The notes: a model not told the origin generated them from the letters alone. DNA of 64,000 nt from an uncultured Rhodocyclaceae bacterium (GCA_964530115.1 CAZGYD010000143.1:46-64045); one strand, 5' to 3'; counted from the stretch's first letter, positions 57,187 to 61,394 are shown. A program made the numbers and translations.

Positions 57187-57780
57187 ATGCCCCGCCGCAA
57201 ACCCGCGCCCCAAGGCCCCTCCCATCTGAGGCTCTCCATCGCCAGCACGGCCGCCCGGCTCATGGCGCAGGACGGCATCACCGACTATGGCCTGGCCAAG
57301 CGCAAGGCGGCGAAGATCCTCGGTGCCCCCGAAGGCGAGGCGCTGCCGAGCAACGAGGAGGTCGAGACCGAGCTGCGAGCTTACCAGGCCCTGTTCCAGG
57401 ACGAGGAACACACCGAGCGCCTGCGCGCCCTGCGCGAGGCCGCGCTGGCGGCGATGGATTTCCTCGCCGCTTTCCGACCCTATCTAACCGGATCCGTGCT
57501 CGACGGCACCGCGGGCCGCTACGCCGAGATCGAGCTCGACCTCTTTGCCGACAGCGCCAAAGATGTCGAGATCTTCCTGCTATCCCACGGCATCCCCTAC
57601 GAACACGCTGACAACCGTCAGCAAGGCGCCGATGCGCCCGAAGCGCGGCTGAGGATGGCCTGGGACGGCGCCGAGGCGCTGCTGTCGATCTATCCCCATC
57701 AGGCAGAACGGCGCCAGCGCAAGGACGACCGCGGTGGCCGGGCCCGCGCCGCAACCGTGGCCGCGCTGCTCGGCGGATGA
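57187..57780 (+). CDS. Hypothetical conserved protein
   Basis: The 197-aa ORF has good codon bias and sits between mpl and aroQ. I do not recognise the family with confidence. Confidence 0.5.
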   Translation: MPRRKPAPQGPSHLRLSIASTAARLMAQDGITDYGLAKRKAAKILGAPEGEALPSNEEVETELRAYQALFQDEEHTERLRALREAALAAMDFLAAFRPYLTGSVLDGTAGRYAEIELDLFADSAKDVEIFLLSHGIPYEHADNRQQGADAPEARLRMAWDGAEALLSIYPHQAERRQRKDDRGGRARAATVAALLGG

Positions 57781-57857
57781 ACCGAAACCGGTCCCGGGGT
57801 GGGGCCGAGTGCCCTGCCTCTGGACAAATTGCGGCGATTTGAGGCAAACTTGCGCCC

Positions 57858-58361
57858 ATGTCGAACCGAACCGGCACCAAATCCAAAACAGCATCGTCGG
57901 GCACCGAGGGGGCGCGGCGCGCCCGCATCCTCGTTCTCCACGGACCGAACCTGAATCTGCTCGGCCGGCGCGAGCCGGAAATCTACGGCCGCGCCACGCT
58001 CGCCGACATCCACGCCGCGATGGAGGCCCGGGCACGGGCACGCGGCGTCCAGATCGAAAGCTTCCAGAGCAATTCCGAGGGCGAACTGATCGACCGCATC
58101 CAGGCGGCGGCCAGCGAAGGCATCGAGTTCATCATCATCAATCCGGGCGCCTACAGTCACACCAGCATCGCCATCCCCGACGCGCTGCGGGCCGTGGCGA
58201 TCCCCTACATCGAGGTGCACATCTCGAACATCCACGCCCGCGAGCCATTCCGGCACCACTCGCATTTTTCCGCCAGCGCGATCGGCGTCATCTGCGGGCT
58301 CGGCCTCCAAGGCTACGAACTCGCCCTCGATGCCGCACTCGCGCGCATCGGCCAGTCCTGA
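57858..58361 (+). CDS. aroQ: Type II 3-dehydroquinate dehydratase
   Basis: The translation reads [21 protein letters not shown]...[13 protein letters not shown]...[17 protein letters not shown]. The N-terminal start is uncertain by a few codons. Confidence 0.92.
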
Positions 58362-58412
58362 TCGAACAACCCGCGGCGGGAATCCACCCGCCCGACACGA
58401 AGGGAGCACAGC

Positions 58413-58874
58413 ATGGACCTGAGAAAGCTCAAGACCCTGATCGACCTCGTCCAGAACTCGGGCATCTCCGAGCTTGAAATCAGCGAGGGCGAGGAAAAGA
58501 TCCGCATCGCCAAGCACGTCGCCGCGGCGCCCTCGACCACGACCGTGATGATGGGCGCGCCGATGATGCCCGCGGCTCCCGCCGCCCCGACGGCCGCCGC
58601 CGCGCCGGCGCCTGCCGCGGAAAAGCCCGCCGAGCCCGAGGGCCACGTCGTCAAGGCGCCGATGGTCGGCACCTTCTACCGCGCCGGCAGCCCGGGCGCA
58701 CCGGCCTTCGTCGAAGTGGGCCAGGCCGTCAAACAGGGCGACACCCTCTGCATCATCGAGGCCATGAAACTGATGAACGAGATCGAAGCCGACGTCTCGG
58801 GCACGATCAAGGCCATCCTCGTCGAGAACGGCCAACCGGTCGAATTCGACCAACCGCTGTTCATCATCGGTTAA
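58413..58874 (+). CDS. accB: Acetyl-CoA carboxylase biotin carboxyl carrier protein
   Basis: The 153-aa product has a Pro/Ala linker and the biotinylation motif [13 protein letters not shown]. Confidence 0.93.
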
Positions 58875-58883
58875 CCTGCCGCC

Positions 58884-59157
58884 ATGTTCGAGAAAATCCT
58901 GATCGCCAGCCGCGGCGACCAGCCGCCGCGAGGCGGCGCAGCGGCGAAGCCAAATCGCCGGGCGGCCGCAGGCCGCAAGGGCGATTTTGCCGCGGAGATA
59001 GCGCATGTTTGAAAAGATCCTGATTGCGAACCGCGGCGACCAGCCGCCGCGAGGCGGCGCAGCGGCGAAGCCGAATCGCCTTGCGGCCGCTGGCTGCAAG
59101 GGCGATTTTGCCGCGGAGATAGCGCATGTTTGAAAAGATCCTGATTGCAAACCGCGG
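58884..59157 (+). repeat. 121-bp tandem repeat (2.26 units) duplicating the first 32 nt of accC plus an 89-nt structured insert
   Basis: ATGTT(C/T)GA(G/A)AA(A/G)ATCCTGAT... recurs at 58884, 59005 and 59126, exactly 121 nt apart. Units 1 and 2 differ at 11 of 121 positions. Only the third copy continues into accC. Confidence 0.95.
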
Positions 59158-60484
59158 AGAGATCGCCCTGCGCGTCCTGCGCGCCTGCCGTGAACTGGGC
59201 ATCCGCACGGTCGCCGTGCATTCCACGGCCGACGCCGAGGCCAAGTACGTCAAGCTCGCCGACGAATCGGTCTGCATCGGCCCGCCCGCCTCGGCGCAGA
59301 GCTATCTCAACGTGCCGGCCATCATCTCCGCGGCCGAAGTCACCGACGCCGAGGCCATCCACCCGGGCTATGGCTTCCTTTCGGAGAATGCCGACTTCGC
59401 CGAGCGGGTCGAGAAATCGGGCTTCGTCTTCATCGGCCCGAAGGCCGAAACCATCCGCCTGATGGGCGACAAGGTCTCGGCCAAGGACGCGATGAAGGCC
59501 GCCGGTGTGCCCTGCGTTCCCGGCTCCGACGGCGCGTTGCCCGAAGATCCCAAGGAGATCGTGAAAATTGCGCGTGCGATCGGCTATCCGGTGATCATCA
59601 AGGCCGCGGGCGGCGGCGGCGGCCGGGGCATGCGCGTCGTCCATACCGAGGCGGCGCTGATCAACGCCGTGACCATGACCCGGGCCGAAGCGCAGGCGGC
59701 CTTCGGCAACCCGATGGTGTACATGGAGAAGTTCCTCGAGAACCCGCGTCACATCGAGATCCAGGTGATGGCCGACAACTACCGGAACGCGGTCTGGCTC
59801 TCGGAGCGCGACTGCTCGATGCAGCGCCGGCACCAGAAGGTCATCGAGGAGGCGCCCGCGCCCGGCATCAACCGCCGGCTGATCACGCGCATCGGCGACC
59901 GCTGCGCCGAGGCCTGCCGGAAGATCGGCTACCGGGGCGCCGGCACTTTCGAGTTCCTCTACGAGAACGGCGAGTTCTACTTCATCGAGATGAACACGCG
60001 CGTCCAGGTCGAGCACCCGGTCACCGAACTCGTCACCGGCATCGACATCGTCCAGGCGCAGATCCGCGTCGCCGCCGGGGAGAAGCTGTGGTTCCGCCAG
60101 CGCGACGTGCAGATCCGCGGCCACGCGATGGAATGCCGCATCTGCGCCGAAGATCCGTTCAAGTTCACGCCTTCTCCAGGCAAGATCCAGAACTGGCATC
60201 CGCCGGGCGGCCCGGGCATCCGCGTCGATTCGCACGTCTATTCGGGCTACACGGTGCCGCCGCACTACGACTCGATGATCGCCAAGCTGATCTCCTACGG
60301 CGACACCCGCGACCAGGCGATCCGGCGCATGCGCATCGCGCTTTCGGAAATGATGGTCGACGGCATCAAGACCAACATCCCGCTGCACCAGGAACTGATG
60401 CTCGACGACCGGTTCATCAAGGGCGGCACCAGCATCCATTACCTCGAAGAAAAGCTGGCGGCCCGCGAGAAGGTCCAGGGCTGA
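59126..60484 (+). CDS. accC: Acetyl-CoA carboxylase biotin carboxylase subunit
   Basis: The 452-aa product starts [26 protein letters not shown] and has an ATP-grasp domain ([10 protein letters not shown]). Confidence 0.95.
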
Positions 60485-60497
60485 CGGGCGGACGCGC

Positions 60498-61394
60498 GTG
60501 TGGATCAGCGCCTCGATCACGACTGACGCCGCGCTCGCCGCGGCGCTCTCCGACGCGCTGCTGGAAGCCGGCGCCGTCTCGGTCTCGGTCGAGGACGCCG
60601 ATGCCGGCACCCAGTTCGAGACGCCCCAGTTCGGCGAGCCGGGCAGCGGCGCCGATCCTTCGGAGGCACCGCTATGGAACCGCTCCCGCGTCACGGCGCT
60701 GTTCGAGCCGCAGGAGGGCCTCGAAGCCCGTCTCGCCGAGGTCGCCGCGAAACTCAGCCTCGGTGGCACGCCAGCCGAACTCGCGGAAGTCGCCGATCAG
60801 GACTGGGTCCGGCTCACCCAGTCCCAGTTCGAGCCCATCCGCATCGACGAGCGGCTGTGGATCGTGCCCTCGTGGTTTGAACCGCCCGATCCGGGCGCCG
60901 TGAATCTCGTCGTCGATCCCGGCCTCGCCTTCGGCACCGGCTCGCACCCGACCACACGCCTCTGCCTCGAATGGCTGTGCGCCGAAGTCCGCCCCGGTGA
61001 CACCCTGCTCGACTACGGCTGCGGCTCGGGCATCCTGGCGCTGGCCGCTGCCAGGCTCGGCGCCGCCGACGTGCTCGGCGTCGACATCGACGAGCGGGCG
61101 CTCGAGGCGGCCGCCGAAAACGCCCGGAAGAACCGGGTCGCACTGCGGCTCGCCCACTCGCGCGAGCCGCTCGCCGAAACCTTCGATCTCGTCGTCGCCA
61201 ACATCCTCACCAATCCCCTGTGCCTGCTCGCGCCGCTTCTGGCCGGACGGCTGAAGCCCGGCGGCCGCATCGCGCTCTCGGGCGTGCTCGACACGCAGGC
61301 CGGCGAGGTCATCGACGCCTACGCGCCCCACCTCGAGCTCGCCGTCGGCGCGACGCTCGACGGCTGGGTCCGGCTGGAGGGCCGCCGGCCATGA
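60498..61394 (+). CDS. prmA: Ribosomal protein L11 methyltransferase
   Basis: The 298-aa product has [21 protein letters not shown] and [10 protein letters not shown]. accC-prmA synteny is conserved. Confidence 0.9.
60750..60772 (-). repeat. 23-nt dispersed motif copy (CC variant, 21/23)
   Basis: The plus strand reads AAACTCAGCCTCGGTGGCACGCC. It lies inside the prmA inter-domain linker and encodes KLSLGGTP. Confidence 0.75.

Follow-up and report, generated by a model that had tools for sequence, protein, structure and literature searches.

A probable translational relay cassette at the 5' end of betaproteobacterial biotin-carboxylase genes

A 121-nt tandem repeat lies between accB and accC in a 64,000-nt stretch of DNA (hereafter the window) from an uncultured Rhodocyclaceae bacterium. 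We think it probable that the 121-nt unit is a conserved cassette of biotin-carboxylase genes, present here as two tandem copies in an imported array, and that the masked true start of accC would be reached through a relay of leader ORFs. Leader-ORF translational coupling is known; what is apparently new is an order-wide RNA cassette of biotin-carboxylase genes. A literature search found no description of the cassette, and its structured insert, B, gave no match in Rfam 15 better than E = 1.9, those matches being to unrelated families. The cassette is apparently undescribed so far. A GeneTack 'Biotin carboxylase' +1 cluster (PMC3711429) was considered as a prior description and set aside, as it appears to be ordinary accB/accC coupling.

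The gene order in the window is aroQ (57858-58361), accB (58413-58874), accC (59126-60484) and prmA (60498-61394). On the plus strand, accB encodes the biotin carboxyl carrier protein (an ORF with a Pfam Biotin_lipoyl match), and its TAA lies 9 nt 5' of A1 (58884-58915), a putative relic accC start consisting of the ATG and codons 2-11. A1 occupies the native position behind accB, its codons resemble same-genus native starts, and it opens pseudo-ORF 1 (58884-59012, plus strand), whose 42 codons end in a TGA at +5 to +7 of the A2 start codon. A1 is followed by B1 (58916-59004, plus strand), an 89-nt structured insert matching our covariance model at 106.4 bits, with helices that covary family-wide. 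B1 is made up of a first hairpin, HP1 (58922-58937), a junction (58938-58951), a second hairpin, HP2 (58952-58987, with an inner hairpin at 58962-58976), a 3' arm (58980-58995) and a tail containing GGAG (58994-59004). The second accC-like start, A2 (59005-59036, plus strand), is internal to the array and opens pseudo-ORF 2 (59005-59133, plus strand), also of 42 codons, whose TGA overlaps the true accC start (ATGTTTGA). The second insert copy, B2 (59037-59125, plus strand; 108.4 bits), differs from B1 at 5 positions and adjoins the true gene. Its 3' arm (AGGGCGATTTTGCCGCGG, 59099-59116, plus strand) forms the 5' strand of a predicted long-range helix with accC nt +27 to +44 (CCGCGGAGAGATCGCCCT, 59152-59169, plus strand), and the final GG of the arm begins the SD GGAG at 59115-59118. 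The accC gene itself, which begins with the true start A3 on the plus strand, is intact despite the insert array: it encodes a 452-aa biotin carboxylase with a Pfam match and a match to the NCBIfam accC equivalog TIGR00514 at 759.6 bits, against a cut-off of 626.5. Neither pseudo-ORF has a Pfam match. On the minus strand, ORFs of 483 and 632 aa (57699-59150 and 58871-60769) lie opposite aroQ-accB-accC; these are typical high-GC artefacts and not genes. The source assembly (G000) is a 206-contig draft of 2.98 Mb with an estimated completeness of 99.99% and an estimated contamination of 8%, which should be borne in mind when copy number is considered.

Tandem Repeats Finder places the array at 58883-59157, with a period of 121, 2.3 copies and 92% matches, and the order 3' of accB is A1-B-A2-B-A3. 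A first-pass annotation of this DNA had described the first 32 nt of accC as occurring three times. The positions (58884, 59005 and 59126) and the spacing of exactly 121 nt hold; identity of the copies does not, since they are similar and none is identical to another. A2 and the true start A3 are 1 nt apart (GCG/GCA). Between the two units there are, as had been reported, 11 differences; 5 of them are in B, and the 6 in A, which separate A1 from A2, comprise five synonymous changes and AGC/AAC. We also recovered the two chained 42-codon ORFs, each with its TGA within the next ATGTTTGA, and both predicted hairpins: GCCGCC-GCGA-GGCGGC at 58922-58937, and AAATCGCC...GGCGATTT at 58952-58987. The repeat region is more stable than shuffled sequence (fold z = -3.07).

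Other suggestions made for the repeat did not survive. No promoter or terminator was found inside the unit, and the absence of a terminator-like site on its plus strand speaks against a transcription attenuator. The proposal of a multi-copy insertion element was likewise rejected: a search of the 2.98-Mb draft for further copies of the 89-nt insert returned none, so that the two in the window are the sole B copies of this genome, and covariance-model searches of ~1,200 genomes found no B outside biotin-carboxylase genes. The same results exclude a multi-copy MITE or REP sequence.

The insert was found well beyond this genome. In all fetched loci, the covariance model of B, built from 34 copies, gave 103 matches to inserts of 86-89 nt, 99 of them usable. 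Carriers belong to at least 10 betaproteobacterial families, with two Oceanospirillales genomes in addition, and B occurs in roughly 5-10% of betaproteobacterial genomes. Among 40 relatives of the window's source, an other-genus genome (G017) shows accB-A1-B-A2-accC with the same 121-nt period. A BLAST survey found B near full length in ~40 of 401 genomes of the family, in many genera, while the covariance model found it in 23 of 401 genomes of the order, from at least 10 families, and not in ~400 genomes covering the rest of the class. One locus (L130, genome G154) that had been chosen as element-free for its weak BLAST match carries a diverged B, with the arm GGCGATTTCGACGCGGGGGCACGGC 5' of the ATG; because such a copy was missed, the BLAST-based prevalence is an underestimate. 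An exact-pattern scan of GTDB identified carriers in Gallionella/Ferrigenium, Sulfuritalea, Thiobacillus, Hydrogenophilus, Methylobacillus and Nitrosomonadales, as well as Aromatoleum buckelii U120, several cultured Variovorax (one with a complete genome; among the carriers are V. paradoxus DS1452, Variovorax sp. Root318D1 and the two-unit strain MHTC-1) and two Oceanospirillales. The same cassette architecture is present in more than 80 independent genomes.

The position of the insert is invariant: in each of the 99 usable copies, B starts immediately 3' of codon 11 (AACCGCGG; ...GCCAACCGCGG), which belongs to the ANRGEIA motif of a biotin-carboxylase gene. The sequence 3' of these copies is accC in 48 cases, an acyl-CoA carboxylase alpha gene in 37 and a pyruvate carboxylase gene in 1; a further 10 are internal units and 3 are mis-registered. 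The acyl-CoA carboxylase alpha hosts lie 3' of PccB-like, LiuB-like or LiuC-like genes. Every copy has a gene-specific relic start in the native position on its 5' side, and on its 3' side B is followed by GGAG-N6-7 and then a re-created true start joined to the intact gene. A genome has 1-3 such loci, which never depart from this codon and gene family. The subtype of B goes with the type of gene and often also with the genus; the acyl-CoA carboxylase type, for example, has a shorter HP1 and GCAGCGACGAAGTC. Two-unit arrays were found at 10 of 76 loci, one of them in an isolate, so that copy number varies among loci.

Several loci depart from this layout. At L064 (genome G097) an extra spacer of ~20 nt separates B from the true start, and the pseudo-ORF stop lies 26 nt beyond the model's end. 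B at L102 (Motiliproteus sediminis) is 104 nt long with an enlarged HP2 region and keeps the +5 stop. L091, in a Methylobacillus MAG, has two units whose periods measure 122 and 125 nt and whose starts read ATGTTGTTCGAA; its pseudo-ORF stop is 5 nt 5' of the next ATG rather than past it, an exception to the 3n+1 period. At L006 (G020), the 101-nt accB-accC spacer has an incomplete accC-like start (ATGTTCGAGA) 7 nt 3' of the accB stop and then a structured insert of ~85 nt without clear similarity to B; this may be a similar event that has since degenerated or that arose independently. Finally, the element-free loci L013 (G002, same genus as the window) and L128 (G185) have another structured spacer, 100-189 nt long, between accB and accC, with an anti-SD:SD hairpin (CCUCC...GGAGG) at its 3' end, adjoining the accC start. 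In this family the accC ribosome-binding site seems to be masked repeatedly, by different means.

The cassettes carry strong signatures of translation. In 79 of 80 units no stop interrupts the pseudo-ORF frame between A1 and the next start, whereas the other two frames are open in 12/80 and 15/80; within B, the pseudo-ORF frame has 1 stop and the others 63 and 34. The period is 3n+1 in 92 of the 99 units, most often 121 nt (62 units) or 118 nt (21 units); 121 nt is the accC period and 118 nt that of the carboxylase-alpha genes. In 89 of 99 units the pseudo-ORF terminates just inside the next start, at position +5 or +8; both units of the window use the +5 position. All 43 element-bearing accC genes have a -1-frame stop in the first four codons, compared with 13 of 37 element-free genes (Fisher p = 2e-11). 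At accC codon 2, TTT is used in 95% of element-bearing but 35% of element-free genes, and A1 has TTC where A2 has TTT in 30 cases with no case of the reverse (p = 2e-9). An SD 4-mer is present in 82 of 99 units at a spacing of 6-7 nt; the remaining 17 lack a canonical one. From the open frame, the 3n+1 period and the stop on the true start, we infer that ribosomes read through B and stop there, which is the basis of the relay model.

The peptide itself does not appear to matter. Differences within B are distributed over codon positions as [34,54,41], and this lack of codon periodicity indicates that the B-encoded peptide is not selected. Selection on the 42-aa product, which the first-pass annotation had offered to explain the synonymous differences between the units, is further contradicted by stem changes that freely alter the peptide and by A1 changes at otherwise invariant residues in 15 of 43 loci. 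Directional synonymous selection was also rejected as the source of the A1/A2 differences, since the only systematic shift is at codon 2 (TTT).

The secondary structure of B is conserved. The four local helices (HP1, inner and outer HP2 and the closing stem) covary: 93.4% of cells are paired, against 34-49% when the alignment is slid, and 14 of 28 pairs have changed on both sides. The outer HP2 stem is the weakest of them, with 86% paired. In sequence, too, B is conserved, 2-4 times more strongly than the neighbouring coding sequence; three Variovorax species share an identical B although their genes differ at 17-18% of third positions.

The B 3' arm is the reverse complement of host gene nt +27 to +44. 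It tracks host-specific synonymous variants, CGT GGT occurring with CCACGA, CGC AGC with GCTGCG, ATA with TAT, and CGG GGC GAG ATC with GATCTCGCCCCGG. It tracks gene type as well, CT pairing AG in accC and TG pairing CA in carboxylase-alpha genes. Across 71 terminal units, 94.1% of cells in this 18-bp helix are paired, against 39-44% when slid, and 128 cells show double changes, compared with 35 +/- 10 in shuffles (0 of 500 shuffles). The compensations in the arm face synonymous sites at nt 30, 33, 36, 39 and 42. In 67 of 69 loci the helix is part of the minimum-free-energy fold, and the alternative in which the arm pairs upstream is on average ~10 kcal/mol worse (6.3 kcal/mol in the window). 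Where A1 and the gene differ at nt 27-35, the arm matches the gene in 8 of 10 cases and A1 in 2. The window's own helix is also in the minimum-free-energy fold; its 16-nt core has 13 Watson-Crick and 2 G-U pairs, versus 14-16 in most other genomes. The arm of an internal unit can form only ~10 of 16 pairs with the sequence 3' of that unit. An apparent host-specific likeness of the B tail to accC nt 33-41 held in two genomes only and was dropped as not general. Taken over the 99 copies, the open pseudo-ORF, the 3n+1 period, the stop-start overlap, the SD and the covarying helix over the true start give strong comparative support to the earlier idea of translational coupling.

These features suggest how the cassette may work. 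In the resting mRNA, the arm would pair with gene nt +27 to +44 and close the SD/AUG region in a loop bounded by the 18-bp helix; because the helix would enclose the SD and AUG, we propose that free ribosomes start poorly at the true AUG. Ribosomes would instead start at A1, either coupled to accB or using the native RBS, and translate the 42-codon pass-through ORF, unwinding B and the arm as they go. They would then terminate at the UGA or UAA 5 nt into the true start (AUGUUUGA) and reinitiate there with the aid of the SD. In two-unit arrays, the relay would occur twice. The predicted net result is that accC translation remains slaved to upstream translation in spite of the insert. Some independent initiation at the true AUG is possible, since the helix takes up only ~4.5 of the 7 SD nt and leaves the AUG in the loop. 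A simple relay leaves unexplained both the strong conservation of HP1 and the junction GCGCAGCGGCGMAGCC and the coding-like evolution of A1, where differences in close A1-A1 pairs show a third-position excess ([10,7,75]). That HP1 and the junction are so conserved leaves room for a gate responsive to a ligand or protein. The cassette may either benefit its host as a translational gate or merely neutralise its own insertion.

The differences between the A copies bear on how the cassette evolved. A1 and A2 differ at 52, 28 and 244 first, second and third codon positions, and changes at otherwise invariant residues are found in A1 at 15 of 43 loci and in A2 at none of 43. On these comparisons, A1 is a decaying relic. 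Duplication in situ followed by neutral decay of A1 is contradicted by the third-position excess, both between A1 and A2 and among A1 copies; together with the A1 residue changes, this excess means that neither such decay nor peptide selection fits. The pattern suggests instead that one A copy has been supplied repeatedly from another allele by recombination, which is consistent with the stronger correlation of B with A2 than with A1 (Mantel r = 0.29 vs 0.105). The presence of the cassette is patchy within genera, and one filled/empty pair with flanks 96% identical differs by exactly 121 nt. B copies in different paralogues of one genome are divergent, so jumps between paralogues must be old. 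B lies between CCGCGGYGA and TCRCCGCGG, of which the left one belongs to the coding sequence of the host; 32 nt are duplicated, and the CCGCGG at the flanks could be taken for a 6-bp duplication. Copy number probably shifts by unequal exchange between the A repeats.

The array in the window seems to have come from another genus. Its accC as a whole is closest to its own genus, and the cassette occurs in 1 of 17 sampled genomes of that genus. Diagnostic sites at the accB 3' end are of own-genus type in 15 of 16 cases, with 1 of the other type. Within accC nt 1-240, 11 sites are of other-genus and 3 of own-genus type, against 18 and 44 downstream (Fisher p = 0.0014), a comparison of 14 + 62 sites with a donor group that we defined ourselves. 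Additionally, the window arm fits a gene reading GGC GAA ATC better than the resident GGA GAG ATC. These data suggest that the array and ~240 nt of the accC 5' end (approximately 58884-59365, plus strand) were imported by homologous recombination from an other-genus donor, with the left junction between accB -79 and A1 nt 13. An origin from a different allele, raised earlier, is therefore supported for this genome, in which accB is of own-genus type and the first ~240 nt of accC of other-genus type. No close donor was found for the window B, the best B identity being ~83%. A native A1 with a foreign A2 is not a general rule: compared with element-free starts of the same genus, A1 was closer in 5 cases and A2 in 7, with 6 ties. 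By the diagnostic-site test, that description would apply to the window only.

Other explanations assign B a more active role or none at all. It is possible, if unlikely, that B is a signal-responsive riboregulator, either a protein operator or an aptamer-like three-way junction of HP1, HP2 and P1, the last formed between the end of A1 and the arm. A bound ligand or protein (a BC/BCCP subunit, biotin, bicarbonate and ATP are examples) would then set the pairing of the arm, upstream for an open start and with gene +27 to +44 for a closed one, and the relay would be only the expression platform. Such a role would account for junction and hairpins conserved beyond the needs of a relay and for a B more conserved than synonymous sites; the two mutually exclusive arm pairings are both supported, the association is exclusive to BC genes of four pathways, and B subtypes track gene type. 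However, ribosomes translating the ORF would unfold the putative aptamer contained in it, and P1 covariation may merely mirror the similarity of A1 to the gene, the arm following the gene in 8 cases and A1 in 2 where they differ. The outer HP2 stem is also the weakest helix (86% paired), a distribution patchy even within genera is unusual for a core regulator, B has no Rfam match, and any effector is hypothetical. We regard as distinctly unlikely the broader proposal of a 'mobile riboregulator', in which B is a signal-responsive gate of all betaproteobacterial BC paralogues (accC, pccA/mccA and pyc) that also homes by recombination to the ANRGEIA-coding block. Its three-way junction would bind a metabolite or the carboxylase/BCCP and so set carboxylase synthesis, the gene start being rebuilt at each homing.

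At the other extreme, B could be an inert selfish or neutral insert, with a true start made self-sufficient by the cassette's SD and pseudo-ORFs that are by-products; it would persist only through horizontal recombination at the ultra-conserved ANRGEIA-coding block, balanced by precise loss. We find this very doubtful. The patchy distribution and the filled/empty pair (96% flank identity, exactly 121 nt inserted) agree with it, as do the import evidence in the window, the decay of A1 at invariant residues (15/43 loci), the closer correlation of B with A2 (r = 0.29 vs 0.105) and the variation in copy number (two units in 10/76 loci). Yet an inert insert would not hold one frame open (79/80), keep a 3n+1 period and place a stop on the true start in 43 of 43 genes, nor would it compensate the gene's synonymous changes. 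Recombination between direct repeats 89 nt apart would be expected to remove the insert easily, yet the cassette is order-wide and strongly conserved; it has no copies at non-BC sites, and within a genome it has not recently spread from paralogue to paralogue. A highly improbable alternative is that A1 is still productive, with ribosomes or an RNA-level event skipping exactly one period (B + A2), as in programmed translational bypassing, to join A1 in frame to the gene. The third-position bias of A1 ([10,7,75]) would fit, a 121-nt skip from any A1 codon reaches the identical A2 codon in frame, and a hairpin lies 3' of the putative take-off site. But no stop follows take-off, codon 11 being followed by GAC CAG ..., and the gap of 121 nt (242 nt here) compares with 50 nt in T4 gene 60. 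The Gly-11 codons of A1 and the gene agree in only ~19 of 29 loci, the radical A1 changes at invariant residues in 15 of 43 loci would be intolerable in a productive N-terminus, and the conserved SD, AUG and overlapping stop favour reinitiation. Lastly, the draft state of the assembly (206 contigs, 8% estimated contamination) invites the suspicion of an assembly artefact, or of a private recent tandem duplication without wider meaning, and we find this pair of explanations scarcely credible. An artefact is an unlikely source of the repeat: 11 sites distinguish the two units, and the more than 80 independent genomes with this architecture include isolate and complete ones as well as further cases of two-copy arrays.

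accC is an essential gene, and the dosage of AccB to AccC is under tight control. If the relay reading is correct, the cassette would add to accC and its paralogues an unrecognised layer of translational control, or of self-compensation, in many Betaproteobacteria, environmental as well as cultured. The cassette is a candidate for a new RNA family, backed by covariation, that would base-pair with coding sequence of its own gene and be traversed by translating ribosomes. It would also illustrate an unusual evolutionary route, in which a gene's own 5' end is re-used as a leader ORF and spread horizontally at a very conserved DNA block of a protein family. In practical terms, it is an annotation hazard: gene callers may place the accC start at the relic ATG, report a frameshift or predict the 42-aa ORFs.

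Coupling by termination-reinitiation, with the RBS masked by long-range structure, is familiar from the overlapping UGAUG of trp operons, from rpmI-rplT (L35-L20) and from the MS2 coat/replicase and lysis genes. As in those systems, no more than a few nt lie between the end of the cassette's upstream ORF and the downstream AUG, which has an SD in front of it, and a helix lies at the downstream start region, which in the relay model would be opened only by ribosomes arriving from upstream. Unlike them, the upstream ORF is no gene and consists of a relic of the downstream gene's first 11 codons plus a conserved 86-89-nt insert; the cassette can be repeated in tandem, occupies the same codon of paralogues and is apparently horizontally mobile. 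Leader-peptide switches such as trpL attenuation, the ermC leader and secM-secA also have a short leader ORF overlapping alternative RNA pairings that govern access to a downstream start. The cassette, in contrast, has no regulatory codons, arrest motif, terminator or peptide selection, and its leader opens with sequence copied from the very gene it would regulate.

A second point of reference is provided by integrating elements that bring along a substitute for the end of the gene they enter, such as e14 and phage 21 in icd and islands in tRNA genes. There, as here, an insert lies between direct repeats of a gene end, with copies that here differ mostly synonymously (52/28/244), and the gene is left intact. 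The cassette differs in being only 89-121 nt long, without an integrase or coding capacity, in targeting a 5' end and in its possible tandem arrangement. The small structured repeats, including REP/BIME, ERIC, Neisseria Correia elements and other MITEs, are likewise short, hairpin-forming, patchy and transcribed with their neighbours, and REP/MITE sequences can alter expression. Those repeats occupy many loci per genome, whereas the cassette occupies 1-3, at one codon of one gene family.

Functionally, the closest parallel may lie outside bacteria. As described in the cited accounts, the TURBS (termination upstream ribosomal binding site) of caliciviruses, like related viral RNAs that stimulate reinitiation, is a structured element of ~80 nt just 5' of an overlapping stop/start, with a motif complementary to small-subunit rRNA, and promotes reinitiation once a long ORF has been translated (PMC6393290, PMC11921876). 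The cassette, too, is a predicted structured RNA 5' of a stop/start overlap with an rRNA-complementary motif. According to the same accounts, TURBS are eukaryotic-viral, tether the 40S subunit through 18S rRNA and reside inside a real coding ORF; the cassette is bacterial and chromosomal, would use an ordinary SD and would also pair with the downstream coding region. By this analogy, TURBS would be the nearest functional analogue found, and the nearest bacterial ones would be ordinary coupled genes with masked ribosome-binding sites.
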